Below are positions 6,452-16,834 of a stretch of DNA of 64,000 bases, piece by piece; positions within the stretch are counted from its first letter, which is position 1; every line of letters begins with the position of its first letter. Made by a program: the position numbers and the translations under genes. Location: the NCBI GenBank assembly GCA_964371045.1, contig CAYJMN010000015.1, positions 1,989-65,988 of the forward strand, written 5' to 3'. Origin of the DNA: an uncultured Chromatiales bacterium. Its GTDB lineage: Bacteria > Bacteroidota > Ignavibacteria > SZUA-365. The notes under the pieces are model-generated. The model was not told the origin of the DNA and did no database searches. It saw only the letters and a list, made by a program, of their open reading frames with translations.

Positions 6452-7219
6452 TTGTTCAGCACTTCCGAAACAGTCAAGGATCTCGAGACCATTGAAGGCC
6501 GTCGCCTTCTGCATGAATTTTTTCATGACCGGCGGGTGAAGAACACCATGGAATTGAAAACCCTGTTCGAATGCTGGAGAGTGTGCAGGCAAGCCACCAA
6601 TCTGCAGCTCAATGACGGACGCCGGATGCGTTTCGAAAGCAGTCTCGGTCTCAAGTTGGGTACGCGCGTTTTTTTCGAGGAAATTGTCAGTACCTACTAC
6701 TTCAATTCGATTCAGGGCCTCGTGTACTTCGGAGCGATGTTGGTATTGGTCGGAGTCGGATTGTATTTGAGCGGTTTCGATTTATTTTTCGCGCTTGGTG
6801 GGCTTGCGATCGAAGCGATCTTTTTGCTTTTGCTCGCCGTAGCGACATCGTTCAGCCGCAACGATGACGGCGGCACCCCGGCGACAGCCCTGGGATTGTC
6901 CGATACGCTGATTTCATCTATAAACAGTTCGATTCGCGACATGACAACGGCGGTGTCCGACCTGTTTCGCCTCATTTCCCAGACGGACATCCGTCAGGAC
7001 GTGCTGCTGACAAGGCTGACGGAAAACATCGCGAAAATCAACAACGAGAACGTGCGCAAGAATCTTGAAAAACTTGATCAGACCAATGCGATACTTCGCG
7101 AGCAAGCAGAGCTTTCCAACACCTTGCTGCAGAATCTTGTTCAGCAGCAGCAGCAGGCGACGCAACAGACGCGACGCATCCTGACGATCCTCGACGATCA
7201 GCAAGGGGCGAACGTATGA
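6452..7219 (+). CDS. GldL/PorL-like inner-membrane protein (copy 1); start uncertain (TTG 6452 or ATG 6548)
   Basis: TM hairpin GLVYFGAMLVLVGVGL...GGLAIEAIFLLLLA with intramembrane Glu121, then a long helical/coiled-coil tail. It resembles the GldL pattern YGMGAAVVIVGALF...GLLTEALIF (recalled from memory). Confidence 0.6.
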   Translation: MFSTSETVKDLETIEGRRLLHEFFHDRRVKNTMELKTLFECWRVCRQATNLQLNDGRRMRFESSLGLKLGTRVFFEEIVSTYYFNSIQGLVYFGAMLVLVGVGLYLSGFDLFFALGGLAIEAIFLLLLAVATSFSRNDDGGTPATALGLSDTLISSINSSIRDMTTAVSDLFRLISQTDIRQDVLLTRLTENIAKINNENVRKNLEKLDQTNAILREQAELSNTLLQNLVQQQQQATQQTRRILTILDDQQGANV

Positions 7220-7266: not shown

Positions 7267-8778
7267 GTGGCTCGCCGACATCGCATCGATATTTTCCTCA
7301 TCCTGTACCTTACGGCCATCGTGGGATTCGCGGTGGTTTCCAGAGAGCGTGAATTCGCGGATAAAGAGAGGACGTCCCGGTATGAACAGCTCCTTGCGAC
7401 GTTCATTCCTCGTCTCCCGGTTCGTCCTGAGCGCGATACGATTCGATGGTATGTAAGCGCGGATGACAACAGCGGCCTGGTTACGCTCACGGAGCAGCAT
7501 TTTGAAGCAAAAATTTTTGTTCACGATATAGATCCCGACGATCAGGTAACAATGACAGTGCATTCCATCATCCTCGACAGTCTGCTGACGGTGCCCGACC
7601 TTTTGAAGATCGGTGACCGTACGGGGTATGGAGAGCCGCACGAGCGCGTTGTGTACTTTCCACTGTGTGGTGAATTTCCCCGTACAGGGGTCTATACCAT
7701 CAACCTCCAAGCCCGTTCGGATCGCATTCGGCGATTGGGGCAAGGCATGATCGAGTACCGCGGCATTCAGTTCGACACCACTTCCATTCCATCCCACCTC
7801 GTGTCGTCGCTGGAAAGCTCCGTCGCCTCACTGACCGTGCTCGTGATCGATACCTCGATCGAGAAGCCAAAGACACTTGAGCCTCTGCTCATTCAAGCGC
7901 AGCGGGAACGCATTTCGTCTGCCATCGGCTTCGAGGAACAGAATCTCATCCGGGTCAATCTGGCCTGGTCAGAACCCACCGTGACGGTCGTGCGTGGCGG
8001 TGGGCGGCTTGTGCAGGCTACGCGGAGCGACAAGCTCCTTGAATACCGCTGGGTTGGCACCGTGACGGGATTCGCGGATACGGTGGTGGTGGAGGCGCGG
8101 CTGCGGCGCGAAGCGGGGGGTAAGGACATCAGCCGAACGCAATTCGTCGTTTCAGGAGTGACGCCATACCTTCTGGAGCAATTGCCGCGTACGCTGTACG
8201 CCGGCGAGGAATTTTCGATCAACATGCGTGTGCAGGGACTGGATCAGCCGGATCTGTATCGCTGGTCGTTGTTCGAAGAAGCCGGGCAGAACGATCTCCT
8301 TCTCAAAGCAAGTGGTAGTGGTCCGGTAGTGACCTACCGCATTCCCACGAGCTATGCCGGCAAGCGAATGGTGATCGAAACCCTGTATGAAGGCCGCAAG
8401 TATCGATTTCTTTCATTGAAAAAGCATGTTTCCGGTCCCTCGCGCTTGTCGCGGATGGTTGAGACGCCTCCGACGCAGATTGTCGCCATCGTTCCGCAGC
8501 GCGCACCGGCGAATGCCGCTTTCCGTTTTTCCGCATCGCGGTATTCCCAGCCCAGATTCATGGGCGAGCAGCCGGTCGACAAGATTTCGGATGTTTCCGT
8601 CGAAATGGAAGGCGCTGACGGTCGCGATCTGGAAGTCGGCGTTTCAATGATCCGCAAGGGAGAGTTTGAATTCGAGCTTATGAATATCGGCGAGATCGCC
8701 AGGGGCGGCGAGCGGGTAGCAATCACGATCCGTGCCGGCGACGCTCTATTTCTCCATTCCATGATTTTATTACGTTAG
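7267..8778 (+). CDS. GldM/PorM-like single-pass membrane protein with a large beta-rich periplasmic region (copy 1)
   Basis: Short basic N-terminus and one TM (RHRIDIFLILYLTAIVGF; R6...Y14), then about 470 aa of Ig-like beta segments. It is a clear paralog of the 9885 gene. Confidence 0.55.
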   Translation: MARRHRIDIFLILYLTAIVGFAVVSREREFADKERTSRYEQLLATFIPRLPVRPERDTIRWYVSADDNSGLVTLTEQHFEAKIFVHDIDPDDQVTMTVHSIILDSLLTVPDLLKIGDRTGYGEPHERVVYFPLCGEFPRTGVYTINLQARSDRIRRLGQGMIEYRGIQFDTTSIPSHLVSSLESSVASLTVLVIDTSIEKPKTLEPLLIQAQRERISSAIGFEEQNLIRVNLAWSEPTVTVVRGGGRLVQATRSDKLLEYRWVGTVTGFADTVVVEARLRREAGGKDISRTQFVVSGVTPYLLEQLPRTLYAGEEFSINMRVQGLDQPDLYRWSLFEEAGQNDLLLKASGSGPVVTYRIPTSYAGKRMVIETLYEGRKYRFLSLKKHVSGPSRLSRMVETPPTQIVAIVPQRAPANAAFRFSASRYSQPRFMGEQPVDKISDVSVEMEGADGRDLEVGVSMIRKGEFEFELMNIGEIARGGERVAITIRAGDALFLHSMILLR

Positions 8779-9005: not shown

Positions 9006-9848
9006 ATGAAGAGTAGTGGATTTCTTCGCCATCTTGTGCTTGGCGCCCTGCTGGTCGCCATGTTCTCGGCATTCGCCGCGCCAGTCTTGTACGCTCAGGA
9101 GGGCGGATCAGACATGATTTCGCTCGAGGAGATGAAAAACAAGCTGCGCGATGAAGGTAGAGGCCGCGATCTCAGTCAGCTTACCCATTCCGAATTGGAA
9201 CTGATCAAAAAATCACCAGGCGGGATGATTGGCAATCTTTTCAATACCGAGTATGTGTTCAAAATCGGTATCTCCACGTTCATCCTCAACCTGTTCGCGA
9301 TCATGCTCGTCACCTTCATTTCGTTTTTCGTCGTCGTGTTTTTCTTCACTCCCATAGGCATTTTTCTGTTCAGGGGCGGATTGCATGCGTTCGTGGGAGC
9401 GATCCTGAAATCGACGGGCCTGTCCACCAAGTTCGGCGACCATCTCATCAAGAAACCGAAGTACTGGCTGCAGAAGGAAAAGCGCGTACGTCAGGGATTC
9501 GCGATGTACATGCACAACGATTTTATTCCGGACTACAAGAACAACATCACCGCCATCGCCTTTATCGGAACCGCGTTCCTTATTCTCAACATCGGTCTCC
9601 GCGGTGTGAAATTCATGACGGCGCATGAGCCCAGCCTCATCGTTATCGCCATCCTCGTGGAAATCACCGTGCTTTTACTCCTCGGTATGACCACATGGTA
9701 CGAGAAGGAAGAGAAGGACGACGAAGCAGGCGCAGGCGCGGGACTTCCTGGAAAGCAGCTTTCTCTGGCCGAGGTCGAGCGCAAGCTTGATGCACTCAAG
9801 CAGGAACTCGAGTCAAGCGTTCGTACGGAAACAGGTCTTCGCCAGTAA
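9006..9848 (+). CDS. GldL/PorL-like membrane protein (copy 2) with a signal peptide and an extra TM segment
   Basis: Signal peptide ending VLYA-QE, a hydrophobic segment at about aa 88-122, a basic loop, the hairpin AIAFIGTAFLILNIGLR...IAILVEITVLLLLG (Glu219), and a short coiled-coil tail. Confidence 0.5.
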   Translation: MKSSGFLRHLVLGALLVAMFSAFAAPVLYAQEGGSDMISLEEMKNKLRDEGRGRDLSQLTHSELELIKKSPGGMIGNLFNTEYVFKIGISTFILNLFAIMLVTFISFFVVVFFFTPIGIFLFRGGLHAFVGAILKSTGLSTKFGDHLIKKPKYWLQKEKRVRQGFAMYMHNDFIPDYKNNITAIAFIGTAFLILNIGLRGVKFMTAHEPSLIVIAILVEITVLLLLGMTTWYEKEEKDDEAGAGAGLPGKQLSLAEVERKLDALKQELESSVRTETGLRQ

Positions 9849-11555: not shown

Positions 11556-13601
11556 ATGAGCAAGCAACTCATTGTACGTGCCCTATTCGTCGTGGCACTC
11601 CTTGCAATGTTCACGCCGCCGCTTTTCGCCCAGGTGGACCGCGACGTCAAGGAGAAGCAGGGTGACCTGAAAGAGGAGTACAACGACGCCCAGGAGAAAA
11701 ACCAGATCATCCGGTCCGCCGCGCAGGACAAACCGCGCGCATCGACCGGCCGCCGTCGCACAAGCGCGACGACGGGTTATGACTATACGCAAGTGAAGGG
11801 TTTCGCCCTGAAACAGTTCTATGATCGTATCGATAAGGTGTTCGAGCGCGCCAACGACCTGGGATTGTTCGAGGAGGAATACCGTCTCGACGGTACCTTT
11901 GAAGTCGCGGGCCGCAAAGGTAAAGGCAGCACCCAGGTTCGCAAGATCGAAGTGTACTACGTTGAAGCGACGCCGGAGGAACAGGAAAACTACGGCATCG
12001 AACCTTTCCAGATCATCGAAGTGTACGTCGAGAAACTCGAGGTCCTGCCGCCGGAGGAAACCGGTACGGAAGACGCCGAGGACGGTGAAGGCTTCGGAGA
12101 TTTCGGCGGTTCAAGCGGTGAGCCCGTTGCGAAAGGCTTCACGGTTTCGGGTTCCGATCTGATGAGCGTCCTGCAGCTCGCCGACGAAGCGTTGTACGAC
12201 GACCTTCTCAGCAAGCGCAGCCAGTCCACTTCCATCGCTCTTCCCGAGCGTGGCGACTGGATGCCCGGCAAAGTCGGTCCCTTTATCGTGATGACGCAGC
12301 GAGAGCTGGAAACGACAACCAGCCGCTTCACGGATTTCTGGAGCACCCGCGATACGCTCGAGGGCTCTGTGCAGATTCCGCAGTTCGACGCGGCCGGCCC
12401 TTTCTACGAACAGTCTATTCCGGTATTTTTCCCGGAAATAACGAAACTGCGCATCCGCAATCCTGAAAACCGTCCGGTAAAAATCACGAACATTCAGTTC
12501 GTCGGTCCGAACGCGGACATGTTCGAGGTCAAGTCCAAGTTCCCGATTCAACTCACCGAGAAGAACGGGACTTTGGACAAAATCGACATCGAATACAATT
12601 TCCTCAGCGACACGAAATACGAGACGCGTGGGCAGATGTTGATCGATGCGAAGGAAGCGGGTCTGCAACAGTACGTGGATGTGATGGCCAATCCCGGCAT
12701 TCATCCGGCGGATTTCGTCACCCTCGACGCATCCCTGGACAAGATTTCGCTTCGATCGCCCGCCCGTTCAGGCTTTGCACCCAACTGGAGACTTTCCTAT
12801 ACGATCGGGAATGATGAGATCGGTCTTCCGCGGTGGTCAACCGGTATTTCTTCGCTTTCCATTGGATTCAAAAACCAGATGAGCGTAGGCGTCGTTCTGC
12901 CGATGAACATGATCGCACCGGATCTCCCGAGCCCGCTCGCGTTCAACAAGGGTCTGCTTTCATCCCCATCGGGATACAGTGCCTCCTTCGACTTCACGTT
13001 CGGTTTCCCGTTCTCGCTGGGAGGCAGCCTGTACGTCATCAACGATTTCGACGGCCAGGACGCGTACAGTCATCTCAAGGTGAGCAACGTCGGTCCGGAG
13101 TTTCAGGGCGACGCTGATTACCGCGGCGATTTCTTCCATCTATCGACCATCGCCCTGGTGTACTATCCCATCATGTTCAAGGACAAGGCCTTCAACGCCA
13201 ACATGGCCTTCCGTTTGAATATCGGTGGTGGTTACCTGAACGTCAGGCGCGATCATCTCGTTTCCGATTTCGAAGCGGAACAAGGGGTGATAAAACTCGA
13301 TCGGCAGTTCAAGCTCGAAGATGCGGGGACAATGGTGACGCTGGGCAAGCAGAAGGACTATTTCGACGTATATGTCCGCATGTCCTTCATCAATCTGAGT
13401 TCCACCAATCGTTACGGCCTTGGTCTTCAGTACTTCTCCGGTCGCATGATGACGGATGCCTTCCTCGAACTGACGAGCTGGCTTCGCGTCGAGGCGAAAT
13501 ATTCCTTCCTGCTTCGCACGAAGGAGGTGTGGGAGAGCGAGAACAGCTACTTCCTGATCACGCCCCGTCTGCGCATCGGGCTTCCTTCCATTTTTAATTG
13601 A
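11556..13601 (+). CDS. Secreted protein with an Ig-like (ASH/choice-of-anchor D-like) domain and a C-terminal beta-barrel
   Basis: RBS AGAGGA and ATG at 11556; signal peptide ending PLFA-Q; LRIRNPENRPVKITNIQFVG Ig-like strands; a C-terminal series of amphipathic beta strands. Confidence 0.6.
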   Translation: MSKQLIVRALFVVALLAMFTPPLFAQVDRDVKEKQGDLKEEYNDAQEKNQIIRSAAQDKPRASTGRRRTSATTGYDYTQVKGFALKQFYDRIDKVFERANDLGLFEEEYRLDGTFEVAGRKGKGSTQVRKIEVYYVEATPEEQENYGIEPFQIIEVYVEKLEVLPPEETGTEDAEDGEGFGDFGGSSGEPVAKGFTVSGSDLMSVLQLADEALYDDLLSKRSQSTSIALPERGDWMPGKVGPFIVMTQRELETTTSRFTDFWSTRDTLEGSVQIPQFDAAGPFYEQSIPVFFPEITKLRIRNPENRPVKITNIQFVGPNADMFEVKSKFPIQLTEKNGTLDKIDIEYNFLSDTKYETRGQMLIDAKEAGLQQYVDVMANPGIHPADFVTLDASLDKISLRSPARSGFAPNWRLSYTIGNDEIGLPRWSTGISSLSIGFKNQMSVGVVLPMNMIAPDLPSPLAFNKGLLSSPSGYSASFDFTFGFPFSLGGSLYVINDFDGQDAYSHLKVSNVGPEFQGDADYRGDFFHLSTIALVYYPIMFKDKAFNANMAFRLNIGGGYLNVRRDHLVSDFEAEQGVIKLDRQFKLEDAGTMVTLGKQKDYFDVYVRMSFINLSSTNRYGLGLQYFSGRMMTDAFLELTSWLRVEAKYSFLLRTKEVWESENSYFLITPRLRIGLPSIFN

Positions 13602-13615
13602 AAGGGGGCGGTATC

Positions 13616-15331
13616 ATGAAGAATGTTCCATTTTCAAGCACGGAAATACAAGGCATGCAGACGAAACACCGACTTCTCCCGTTCCTGGTTCTGGTCTTCA
13701 TCGCAGCGCTGGTCGCCCCTTCGTTTGTTCAGGCGCAAAGCTCCGGCGATGCGCTGACGAATGTAGAACAGATCCTGCGTTTCATGAAGAGCGCGAACTA
13801 TTCCGAGGATGACATGCTTCGGCGCATGGCATGGGGCGACAAGATCGTCACGGACATGGCATCCTACCGTCCCGGCGAAGACGACCGCCAGAACTATCTC
13901 CGCTTGCTCGACGTCGCCATCGACCATTACAAGGACGAGAACGATCGTCTCCGCGTACTTCTTCGCGCGTTGACCAGTCTCGATCCGCTCGTCAACAAGT
14001 ACTTCCCGCAGTGGATTATCCAGGACGAACCGACCATCCTCGAAGTCATGCGCAAGGTCCGCGACAACCGTGACGATCTTCGCGACGCCGAGGCGGTGAC
14101 GATCGCCGAACGTGTGCTTACCGGAAAAGCGCGCATGCGCATTATCCAGAGCCCGAAGGACGATCAGAACCTGATCGCCATTATTATCGAGAAAGCCCGA
14201 CCGCACGACGAGGAAAACCTGTCCGCCGGCTTCATGACGAACAAGGATAACAGCGACTTCGACGATTACCGCATCGTCGGCCGCCGCAATCTCCGCGAAG
14301 TCCTGACGCCCGACCTCTACGATTATGTCGTGCGCCGCGAGTCGTATGCGCATCTGGACGAAACCGGCGCCCTCAAACCGGCTCCGTATGTCGCCGAAGC
14401 CACCATCAGCATTCCTTTCGGTGGCGGATTTCTGTGGACGCTCGATGCGGACGAACGTGCGAGCGATGGCGTCGCATTGCAGCCATCGCGCATTCGCGCC
14501 GGTTTCGAACTGAAGATCGGCAACGATTGGGTCAACCTGCCTTTTCTCTATGGAGCGCAGTGGAACACCTTGTTCGTTTACGAACCTTCGAGCACCGAAC
14601 GCATCAAAATCGGCCCGTCCATCCCCTTCGGCTTTGGCGACATCACCGTGAAGGATGATTTCCCGGTCTTCCAGCCCCGCACCATCAACGGCACATGGGG
14701 CGCCGCCGGTGAATACTTCAAGCAGCTTTCCAACACCGCGGGTACTGTAGGTTCCGATGCCGACGGTATCGGCGCGGCCGCCTTTGTTTCCTTCGGGCTT
14801 CCCAAGCTTGGAAACAAAAAGATCACGGACGCCAACGGCACGATTATCAACGGCGAGGAGGTCAATCAGGTATATGACCCGAACGACCCCGGAAAGTCGT
14901 TCCTCATGAACCGATTCTATTATCTCGCTTCGACGGCCACGCTGTATTACTGGCGCGATCTGGGCTTTGCCCTGGATGGTTTGCGAATTGCGGCTGGTCT
15001 CGGTCACCAGAAGGTTATCGAGGCTCAGCGCCGCGATCCCGCTCTGTTCCCCGGTTCGGATCCGAACCTTATATTCGATTCCGTCCGCACGGTGGCTGAT
15101 CACACCACTCTTGACCTGTTCGCGCGACTGACCTACGATCACATGGGTAAAACCAGCTACGGTGTCGCCATGCAGTATTTCAACGGTGGCCTGATGGGTG
15201 AAGTATATCTGCACATCTTCTCATGGATGCGCGCGGAAGTAAAATACTCACGTGTCGTTTTCCGTGATGTGGAGAAGTGGGAACACGAAGAGATGATCGT
15301 TCCGGGTCTCAGATTCGGGTTCGCGTTCTGA
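13616..15331 (+). CDS. Outer-membrane beta-barrel protein with a helical N-terminal domain, paralog of the 11556 gene
   Basis: Signal peptide ending VQA-Q, about 13-14 amphipathic strands, and a C-terminal PGLRFGFAF (aromatic beta-signal). It shares IGND and the YG...QYF.G..M......SW.R.E.KYS segment with the 11556 protein. Confidence 0.65.
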   Translation: MKNVPFSSTEIQGMQTKHRLLPFLVLVFIAALVAPSFVQAQSSGDALTNVEQILRFMKSANYSEDDMLRRMAWGDKIVTDMASYRPGEDDRQNYLRLLDVAIDHYKDENDRLRVLLRALTSLDPLVNKYFPQWIIQDEPTILEVMRKVRDNRDDLRDAEAVTIAERVLTGKARMRIIQSPKDDQNLIAIIIEKARPHDEENLSAGFMTNKDNSDFDDYRIVGRRNLREVLTPDLYDYVVRRESYAHLDETGALKPAPYVAEATISIPFGGGFLWTLDADERASDGVALQPSRIRAGFELKIGNDWVNLPFLYGAQWNTLFVYEPSSTERIKIGPSIPFGFGDITVKDDFPVFQPRTINGTWGAAGEYFKQLSNTAGTVGSDADGIGAAAFVSFGLPKLGNKKITDANGTIINGEEVNQVYDPNDPGKSFLMNRFYYLASTATLYYWRDLGFALDGLRIAAGLGHQKVIEAQRRDPALFPGSDPNLIFDSVRTVADHTTLDLFARLTYDHMGKTSYGVAMQYFNGGLMGEVYLHIFSWMRAEVKYSRVVFRDVEKWEHEEMIVPGLRFGFAF

Positions 15332-15374: not shown

Positions 15375-15414
15375 GATGCAGGCGATGCGCGCAAGCCATC
15401 GCCTGCATCGTTTT
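15375..15414 (+). terminator. Intrinsic terminator-like hairpin
   Basis: 13-bp perfect stem gatgcaggcgatg / catcgcctgcatc with a 9-nt loop, followed by GTTTT. Confidence 0.65.
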
Positions 15415-15487: not shown

Positions 15488-16834
15488 ATGCTGCATGTGA
15501 TCACATCTCTACTGGCGCCGCTGCTGGTCATGATTCTGCTGCAACCAGCGATGCGGAATCCCTCCGCCGTACCCCTCGCGAACTCTGAAGCCGACAGCCT
15601 TCGCAAGCCAACCATCATTTCAGCACGTACCAAGGATCCGCAACGGGTCAACGTCTCGATACGGGCGGTGGATATCAGCCGCTATCCTGAAGCGAGCGTC
15701 ATTCTCGATGCCCGCGATACCGCCAACAACCATTTCGCTCATCTGGTGAAAAGCGACCTGGTGATACTTCAGGACGGACTGCCGGTGAAAATCGAGAGTC
15801 TCGACCGCATTTCCGCGGACAACAGTCTTCCGGTCGACATTGCGTTCATTATTGATCAGACAGGCAGCATGCAACAGGAAGTGAACGAGGTGAAGGCCAA
15901 TATCATCGAATTCACGCGCCGTCTCGCATCAAGAGGTGTGGATTACCGTCTTGCGCTGATCTCCTTCAGCGACCGTATCGAACGGTACCAGGATTTCACG
16001 GAAGATGTGAAGACGTTCATTTCATGGATCGATGGTGTGAAAGTGGGAGGAGGAGGGGACGACAATGAAAATGCGCTGGAAGGACTCTTCGAGGCCACGT
16101 CGTTCAAATTCAGGCAATCGGCGCAGCGCATTTTTATCCTCATCACCGATGCGATGTATCATCAGAAAGGCGAGAGAGGCGACGGGAAAACGGATTTCAC
16201 GACAGCGTCGATGATCGATTTTCTCGTCAAACAAAATATCAAGCTTTTTGCGATCACTCCGCCGCTGATGGACGAATACCGGCAGATGACCGAAACCACG
16301 AGAGGGAAACGGTTCAACATCATTGAAGATTTCAGTTCGATACTCGATGAGTTCAGCGAGAGTCTGACAAACCTGTACGCGGTCAGGTACAGGATTTCCG
16401 ATGAAGTACCACCCGAAAAAATTGATCTTGAAATCAGAAATATGAACAACGAGACCGTGCTGCGCGAATCGCATACGGTGCTCGAAGTCGATAAAAAATT
16501 CGTTCTGGATAATATTCTGTTCGATTTCAACCGCGCCACGTTCGACATGACGTACACCGACGATCTTGGCAGGATCATCGCCATGCTGAATATGTATCAG
16601 GGGATGCACATCGAAATTCGCGGACACACCGATTTTATCGGAAGCGACGAGTACAACGTCGCGCTCTCCGACGCCCGCGCCCGCGCGGTGAAGAAGTTTT
16701 TCTCGGATCGCGGCGTCAGCACGGATCGCATGACTACGCGCGGTATGGGGAAATCACAGCCTGTGGCGCCAAACGATACCGAACTGGGACGACGCCTCAA
16801 CCGCCGCACCGAGATCGTCATTACGCGCAAGTAA
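15488..16834 (+). CDS. vWA domain plus OmpA-like peptidoglycan-binding domain protein
   Basis: VDIAFIIDQTGSM (MIDAS), RIFILITDA; C-terminal NILFDFN...IEIRGHTD..GSDEYN..LS..RA..V...NRRTE. Confidence 0.9.
   Translation: MLHVITSLLAPLLVMILLQPAMRNPSAVPLANSEADSLRKPTIISARTKDPQRVNVSIRAVDISRYPEASVILDARDTANNHFAHLVKSDLVILQDGLPVKIESLDRISADNSLPVDIAFIIDQTGSMQQEVNEVKANIIEFTRRLASRGVDYRLALISFSDRIERYQDFTEDVKTFISWIDGVKVGGGGDDNENALEGLFEATSFKFRQSAQRIFILITDAMYHQKGERGDGKTDFTTASMIDFLVKQNIKLFAITPPLMDEYRQMTETTRGKRFNIIEDFSSILDEFSESLTNLYAVRYRISDEVPPEKIDLEIRNMNNETVLRESHTVLEVDKKFVLDNILFDFNRATFDMTYTDDLGRIIAMLNMYQGMHIEIRGHTDFIGSDEYNVALSDARARAVKKFFSDRGVSTDRMTTRGMGKSQPVAPNDTELGRRLNRRTEIVITRK

Follow-up and report, generated by a model that had tools for sequence, protein, structure and literature searches.

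A tandem pair of paralogous predicted outer membrane barrels in a conserved gene cluster of an Ignavibacteria bacterium

The stretch analyzed here (the window) comprises 64,000 nucleotides from an uncultured bacterium of the class Ignavibacteria (Bacteroidota; SZUA-365; NCBI GenBank assembly GCA_964371045.1, contig CAYJMN010000015.1, positions 1,989 to 65,988 of the forward strand), and all positions below are given in window numbering. A compact cluster of seven plus-strand genes was found in it (L1, M1, L2, M2, B1, B2 and VWA-OmpA, the last encoding a von Willebrand factor A and an OmpA-like domain). The subject of this report is the pair B1 and B2, whose products are anciently duplicated paralogues. 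Their predicted C-terminal barrels define a new, unannotated protein family, and structural models support the assignment of both to the outer membrane barrel fold class.

The two barrel genes

The features of the pair are as follows.

11556..13601, plus strand: B1 gene, 681 aa, with signal peptide, conserved N-terminal segment, alpha/beta domain, immunoglobulin (Ig)-like domain and C-terminal barrel
11556..11633, plus strand: B1 Sec signal peptide MSKQLIVRALFVVALLAMFTPPLFAQ, as read from the sequence; kept among orthologues, with a helix predicted at residues 2-18
12048..12125, plus strand: acidic, glycine-rich loop of B1, about residues 165-190, within the alpha/beta domain; predicted disordered, with predicted local distance difference test (pLDDT) values <50 at 169-186
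12417..12695, plus strand: Ig-like beta-sandwich of B1, about residues 288-380, presumed periplasmic; DSSP strands at 290-378 and Foldseek matches
12711..13598, plus strand: barrel domain of B1, about residues 386-681, 13-15 predicted strands, ending in ...RIGLPSIFN; match to the barrel-domain profile A3 at E 1e-98
13602..13615, plus strand: B1-B2 spacer of 14 nt that separates the stop codon of B1 from the ATG of B2, with a Shine-Dalgarno (SD)-like motif aaggggg
13616..15331, plus strand: B2 gene, 571 aa (ATG at 13616) or 558 aa (ATG at 13655), with signal peptide, helical domain, small beta/alpha region and 14-strand barrel
13763..14122, plus strand: helical N-terminal domain of B2, residues 37-156 of the 558-aa form, presumed periplasmic; predicted helices with pLDDT of about 73-85
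14393..15328, plus strand: barrel domain of B2, residues 247-558, 14 predicted strands, with a C-terminal GFAF end resembling a beta-signal; match to profile A3 at E 7e-89

The B1 stop codon ends at 13601 and the B2 ATG lies at 13616, in agreement with the 14-bp gap given in a preliminary description of this DNA. An SD-like agagga precedes the B1 ATG at 11556. For B2, the ATG at 13616 is favored over that at 13655, where the database's 558-aa form starts, because the residues in between are kept among orthologues.

B1 and B2 are paralogues of an unannotated family

By BLASTP, B1 and B2 shared 29% identity over 156 C-terminal residues (E 2e-14). The relationship was extended by a profile-profile comparison of 44 B1 and 38 B2 orthologues (99% probability, E 9e-18, 211 columns), and in a joint alignment that included distant members the similarity reached back to the region of the IGND strand. 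The motifs common to B1, B2 and the distant members are IGND..LPFW, KLG..P, RKLNGTxG, FYY, YGxxxQYF and WLRxExKYS..RDxExWE. A strand-by-strand paralogy had been proposed earlier from pairs of short peptides; these pairs are present in the translations, and BLASTP and profile comparison agree with the proposal. Orthologues of B1 had 43-82% identity. For both genes, dozens of metagenome-assembled genomes (MAGs) encode recognizable versions of the plus-strand protein, with identities as low as 43-54% and with conserved motifs up to the final residue.

Profile A3, the barrel-domain alignment of 47 sequences, retrieved 258 clusters at 50% identity (E<=1e-3). In each full-length match listed, the barrel was C-terminal and was preceded by a variable part of about 140-450 residues, and the N-termini were signal-peptide-like in all members inspected except for one short gene (L035). 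In Pfam and NCBIfam scans of the seven cluster proteins at E<=1, the sole matches were to VWA and OmpA, both in the product of the seventh gene, PDB sequence searches with the B1, B2 and joint barrel-domain profiles gave no match at E<=10, and Pfam scans of 87 diverse family members found no domain except one PDZ. The earlier remark that no family motif could be recognized in the two proteins is borne out by these searches.

Two known families were considered and rejected. For PorV/PorQ, hhalign of A3 against the alignment of the genome's own PorV/PorQ protein (A6) gave a probability of 1.5%. For PorP/SprF, PF11751 had no match in B1, B2 or the 87 relatives, the sole PF11751 match in the genome being its PorV/PorQ protein. 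Homology to GldK or GldN was likewise not detected, with no NCBIfam match for B1 or B2.

Predicted structure and alternatives to a proposed outer membrane platform

AlphaFold2 (AF2) models were built from the orthologue alignments, and strands were assigned with DSSP. The mean pLDDT was 77 for B1 and 71 for B2, with predicted template modelling (pTM) scores of about 0.5. The models contain 14 strands in B2 (residues 247-557 of the 558-aa form) and 13-15 in B1 (residues 388-676), close to the 13-14 counted previously. On alignment, the independently predicted strand patterns were in register over 12 strands from IGND to the C-terminus; N-terminal to these, B2 has two more strands and B1 has two short candidates (388-392 and 396-400).

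In the model of B1, a signal helix is followed by a conserved helix and a disordered stretch, an alpha/beta domain carrying the disordered acidic loop EETGTEDAEDGEGFGDFGG, the Ig-like sandwich and the long antiparallel strands. B2 is predicted to consist of a signal helix, the helical domain at 37-156, a small beta/alpha region and the 14 strands. The N-terminal domains proposed in the preliminary description, an acidic region plus an Ig-like domain in B1 and a helical domain in B2, therefore recur in the models. B1 residues of about 56-82 (11721-11801) are predicted to be disordered (pLDDT <50), yet across the 44 orthologues this stretch (..DK....RRR.S.TTGYDYTQVKG) hardly varies, and it may serve for docking as a linear motif resembling a TonB box.

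Several sequence features accompany the predicted folds. Hydrophobicity alternates along most strands, aromatic residues make up about 14% of the barrels, and Cys is absent from them. The hydrophobic N-termini were read by eye as signal peptides, ending in ..FAQ in B1 and in ..VQAQ in B2, and this feature is shared by orthologues and by distant members. The C-terminus of B2 is F-x-F in 38/38 orthologues, with F terminal in most distant members. Both proteins are probably located in the outer membrane.

In Foldseek searches of the barrel parts against the PDB, the above-threshold matches were almost all outer membrane barrels, with probabilities up to 0.99-1.0. B2 matched TbuX (E 7e-4), FhaC, OmpG, CymD, FadL, TodX and the PorV chain 8gl6_F (E 1.5e-2), and the B1 barrel matched OmpU, OmpF and AlgE, while for the Ig-like domain of B1 the matches were to the chaperone Caf1M and to proteins of the ciliary central apparatus. 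The modelling and fold search that had been suggested for the pair thus returned barrel-like models, with weakly matched outer membrane barrels as the nearest folds and no characterized sequence family.

These matches bear on the possibility that the barrels are FadL-like or porin-like substrate channels, with the periplasmic domains as plugs or adaptors, energized in the manner of TonB-dependent transport. The top matches of B2 belong to the FadL family (TbuX, TodX, FadL, CymD) together with OmpG, and those of B1 are porins and AlgE. However, the TM-scores were low, no Toluene_X (PF03349), porin or TonB-plug Pfam match was found in B1, B2 or the 87 relatives, and no conserved transporter, binding-protein or catabolic genes were found in the neighborhoods read (described below). 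A channel function is considered very unlikely.

The models also allow a harsher reading, in which B1 and B2 are not membrane barrels at all but soluble proteins rich in beta structure, periplasmic or secreted, that the models wrongly show as barrels, or in which the coding strand is the antisense one. Model confidence was moderate (pLDDT 71-77, pTM about 0.5), and an open frame of 526 aa does lie opposite B2 (13634-15214, minus strand). Against mis-modelling stand the signal peptides, the C-terminal F-x-F, the alternating strands and the outer membrane proteins that make up almost all Foldseek matches. The antisense frame is probably a by-product of composition, because the protein conserved in the MAGs is the plus-strand one. 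Either version of this reading is considered extremely improbable.

The surrounding gene cluster

The remaining features of the cluster are listed below.

6452..7219, plus strand: L1, small polytopic inner membrane protein with an invariant Glu read as membrane-embedded; no family match
7267..8778, plus strand: M1, bitopic, an N-terminal hydrophobic segment read as a transmembrane helix and a large, presumed periplasmic part; no family or PDB match
9006..9848, plus strand: L2, paralogue of L1
9885..11489, plus strand: M2, paralogue of M1 (BLASTP E 1e-23)
15375..15414, plus strand: perfect 13-bp hairpin followed by GTTTT in the gap between B2 and VWA-OmpA, possibly a partial terminator, as read from the sequence
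15488..16834, plus strand: VWA-OmpA, a VWA domain and an OmpA-like peptidoglycan-binding domain (Pfam OmpA 4e-19, VWA 8e-13)

The stem arms of the hairpin are GATGCAGGCGATG and CATCGCCTGCATC, and it could, as an internal attenuator, adjust how much barrel protein is made relative to the anchor. The sequencing runs that contain this stretch are DNA only (sediment and soil metagenomes).

In L, the invariant Glu E121 falls in a hydrophobic segment interpreted as a helix within the membrane, and in M, the N-terminal hydrophobic segment read as a transmembrane helix is followed by about 480 residues that are presumed periplasmic. Neither protein had a Pfam or NCBIfam match, and searches of the PDB with the L and M profiles at E<=10 found no GldL/GldM or PorL/PorM chain. 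With hhalign, L against canonical GldL gave a probability of 0.65% and M against GldM 0.2%, the sole stretch of L aligned to GldL being the glutamate-bearing helix. A kinship of L/M to GldL/GldM was therefore rejected at the sequence and profile level (hhalign <1%). M1 and M2 had been described as stalks; as L/M have no detectable GldL/GldM homology, this term stands as an analogy and not as a finding.

A distant paralogue of L2 (366 aa, phmmer E 8e-8, no Pfam match) was observed elsewhere in the genome (contig C113:13774-14874; L049:5775-6875). It was rejected as a second motor-like locus, since its position is immediately upstream of a gene for an AAA_16/STAND-like ATPase and not beside M or barrel genes.

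Conservation and history of the pair

B1 and B2 are adjacent in 29/30 genomes of the window's order, and the window genome contains exactly these two copies of the barrel family. In a phylum sample of 151 genomes, A3 matches were found in 11, all in the window's class and nearly all as adjacent pairs. Neighborhoods were read in about 10 families of this class and in 4 metagenome contigs without lineage assignment. In every one of them an M-like single-pass inner membrane protein precedes the pair, and VWA-OmpA follows wherever the sequence extends far enough; the order M-like, barrel, barrel, VWA-OmpA thus recurs in other families of the class and in metagenome contigs with distant members.

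In a maximum-likelihood tree of the barrel domains, first-position and second-position genes were separated, with 3-4 label changes compared to about 12 after shuffling (0/500 shuffles). Since the tree splits by position, the duplication is old and both copies have been retained in order. Several lineages have a single L/M pair and still two barrels, and the barrel duplication is therefore a separate event that predates the L/M duplication of the window. For the same reason, a pairing of one barrel per stalk (B1-M1, B2-M2) was rejected as a general rule.

Variants of the arrangement were also observed. Two barrel pairs are present in each of two genomes of the same class (G183, contigs C4 and C40; G035, contigs C20 and C78), which suggests duplication of the whole module in some lineages. 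A metagenome contig (L048:1844-6542) has three tandem barrel genes; by the tree, the first two arose from each other by recent duplication, and the contig breaks off within the third. In a distant cluster (L047:4523-6925), the barrel pair is preceded by a gene for a protein of 800 aa, upstream of which no separate small gene resembling L was called; either a fusion of L and M or an unrelated protein may be encoded there. Six MAG records with the Bacteroidota-type cluster (L013, L018-L020, L022, L030) are titled 'uncultured Chromatiales' or 'Ectothiorhodospiraceae', and these taxonomic labels look wrong.

Relation to type IX secretion

Type IX secretion is thought to require a GldLM motor and a GldKN ring, in which GldK is a lipoprotein of the formylglycine-generating enzyme (FGE) fold and GldN a periplasmic protein, neither of them a barrel. 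The window genome contains SprA, one PorV/PorQ protein and at least 150 proteins with a TIGR04183 C-terminal sorting domain (CTD), and relatives of the PorV/PorQ protein were found in Melioribacteraceae and Ignavibacterium at 53-57% identity, which points to Ignavibacteria as the class. Among type IX secretion system (T9SS) proteins, only PorV, SprA and Plug have been reported for Melioribacter and Ignavibacterium (PMC11705866).

GldM (TIGR03517) was detected in none of 41 relatives and, in the 151-genome sample, in no genome of the window's class, while 38 genomes of other classes matched as a positive control. GldN, and GldK above cut-off (TIGR03523, TIGR03525), were absent in 11 genomes of the class and present in 5/5 control Bacteroidota, and phmmer searches with canonical GldL, GldM and GldN from control genomes found nothing in the window genome. 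The barrel family and GldM did not co-occur in the 151-genome sample. SprA was present in 37/37 class genomes tested, of which at least 20 had no match to the barrel profile, and among such genomes a full-length VWA-OmpA orthologue was found in 0/18 tested. A presence of the cluster that tracks SprA was thus rejected and, because many SprA-positive genomes lack it, the cluster cannot be a class-wide universal substitute for the GldK/N ring.

The preliminary description had placed the two barrels as a heterodimeric outer membrane partner in place of this ring. What holds of that proposal is that GldK, GldM and GldN are undetected in the genome and in the class genomes sampled, and that the barrels belong to a conserved module; the SprA-positive genomes without the cluster speak against a general replacement of the ring. 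B1 and B2 are probably partners of a trans-envelope module, and a replacement of the ring by the pair, an argument by analogy although compatible with the data, appears unlikely on our analysis.

More specifically, the pair may be the outer membrane end of a T9SS or gliding power train that replaces the GldK/GldN ring, with L/M as very divergent or analogous GldL/GldM. The secretion proteins of the genome, the GldK, GldM and GldN results with their positive controls, and the separate occurrence of the barrel family and GldM are consistent with such a power train, as are the confinement of the L-GldL alignment to the glutamate helix and the published restriction of Melioribacter and Ignavibacterium to PorV, SprA and Plug (PMC11705866). 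On the other hand, the cluster does not track the translocon, L/M have no detectable GldL/GldM homology, GldK and GldN, which are not barrels, differ in fold from B1 and B2, and the non-co-occurrence with GldM is a class-level distribution that counts as one event. Such a power train is considered unlikely. Its boldest form, in which L, M, B1, B2 and VWA-OmpA would constitute an unrecognized ion-driven machine with B1/B2 as its outer membrane rotor or gate, and in which this machine would power the T9SS or gliding in Ignavibacteria-type lineages that have SprA/PorV and hundreds of CTD cargo proteins but no GldKLMN, taking the place of the entire GldKLMN core without being homologous to it, is held to be improbable, because the distribution is patchy and L/M lack motor homology.

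A possible trans-envelope module

The interpretation preferred here, held with modest confidence, is that B1 and B2 are ancient paralogues of an unannotated family of about 14-strand barrels that act jointly as the heteromeric outer membrane platform of an undescribed trans-envelope module. Each protein would be exported by Sec and then inserted in the outer membrane, with its N-terminal domain of about 385 aa (B1) or 245 aa (B2) facing the periplasm. The M protein or proteins would bind to these domains by their periplasmic part, and M would itself be linked to small L, with its invariant glutamate in a presumed membrane helix. The same domains would also dock VWA-OmpA, and this protein would anchor the assembly to peptidoglycan. 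The contact between B1 and B2, their contacts with M and VWA-OmpA and the energy coupling are proposed from the arrangement of the genes and the models, and the conserved acidic loop of B1 may, speculatively, be a ligand of a metal-binding (MIDAS) site in the VWA domain. L/M may deliver energy, with secretion, adhesin movement or envelope tethering as candidate outputs.

Several observations weigh against this interpretation. Synteny and co-retention are what point to a B1-B2 heteromer, and the pattern would look no different if each barrel had a role of its own. The description of the module as energized is an assumption, because L/M have no detectable kinship to any known motor. The C-terminus of B1 in the window's order is ..PSIFN, with F penultimate and no terminal aromatic residue. 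The Foldseek TM-scores did not exceed 0.45, and the exact number of strands and the closure of the barrels are model-based estimates. For a role in powering the T9SS, the SprA-positive genomes of the class without barrels count against the proposal as well.

The same arrangement could belong to an integrity system resembling Tol-Pal, in which the barrels and VWA-OmpA tether the outer membrane to peptidoglycan and L/M position or energize this link, division sites being one conceivable place. The module reaches from the inner membrane across the periplasm and the peptidoglycan (through the OmpA domain) to the outer membrane, and it is single-copy and conserved across the window's order. A genome survey detected no pal in Bacteroidetes and proposed other tethers such as PorE (PMC12204202). 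This 2025 survey also found VWA proteins beside TolQR-like motors and discussed PorE as an outer membrane-peptidoglycan tether of Bacteroidetes, from which the Tol-like alternative gains support (PMC12204202). However, the cluster is absent from many genomes of the same class, where a core envelope function should be present unless something else has taken it over, and no TolB-like or tetratricopeptide repeat (TPR) partner was found. A Tol-Pal-like role is regarded as quite improbable.

The presence of SprA, PorV and many cargo proteins without GldLM/GldKN in Ignavibacteria-type bacteria has been noted in print (PMC11705866). The barrel module is a concrete candidate for the question of what powers the T9SS in these bacteria. 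The barrel family itself is sizeable and wholly unannotated, and it occurs nearly always as an ancient tandem pair in a module predicted to extend from the inner membrane through the peptidoglycan to the outer membrane.

Comparison with known systems

PorV/PorQ and the FadL/TodX/TbuX proteins are among the best Foldseek matches of B2 and share its predicted number of 14 strands. The earlier remark on a PorV/FadL-type 14-strand size therefore holds for the strand count of B2 and its weak Foldseek matches, but not as profile kinship. The TM-scores to these proteins were 0.25-0.38, adding to the low hhalign probability against PorV/PorQ. Unlike the hatch inside the barrel of FadL and PorV, the N-terminus of B1 and B2 is a predicted folded periplasmic domain of 245-385 aa, and besides the pair a bona fide PorV/PorQ protein is already encoded in the genome.

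The PorK/PorN (GldK/GldN) ring of the T9SS, with PorP, PorG and PorE, resembles the barrel pair in the position of its genes directly after L/M-type inner membrane genes, in its presumed place under or in the outer membrane, and in the presence of an OmpA-family peptidoglycan binder (PorE there, VWA-OmpA here). The host of the barrel pair also has SprA, PorV and many CTD cargo proteins. The two differ in that GldK and GldN are not barrels, B1 and B2 have no sequence match to GldK, GldN or PorP_SprF, and the barrel cluster is missing from many SprA-positive relatives.

The Agl-Glt gliding machine of Myxococcus xanthus comprises the partners GltH, GltK and GltC and the VWA adhesin CglB (PMC9946355). 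Its GltA and GltB are outer membrane barrels that interact with and stabilize each other within a motor-coupled platform involving a VWA protein (PMC9946355). The likeness of B1/B2 to this system is one of presumed function and architecture only. The Glt barrels are smaller and have unstructured N-termini, whereas large folded domains are predicted in the N-terminal parts of B1 and B2. The VWA protein encoded here has an OmpA peptidoglycan-binding domain and is probably periplasmic, whereas CglB is a surface lipoprotein adhesin, and the inner membrane partners L/M were not TolQR-like by any test run. In both cases, two clustered outer membrane barrel genes occur with a VWA-domain protein, as known here from genes and models. 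In both, the barrels would form the outer membrane end of a trans-envelope machine, which in Glt is driven by an inner membrane motor, and the barrels have N-terminal extensions, presumed periplasmic here and in Glt thought to receive force from the periplasmic side. Should the link to the T9SS fail, the pair would still represent a new kind of two-barrel outer membrane platform, with GltA/GltB of the Myxococcus gliding machine as its only close analogue.

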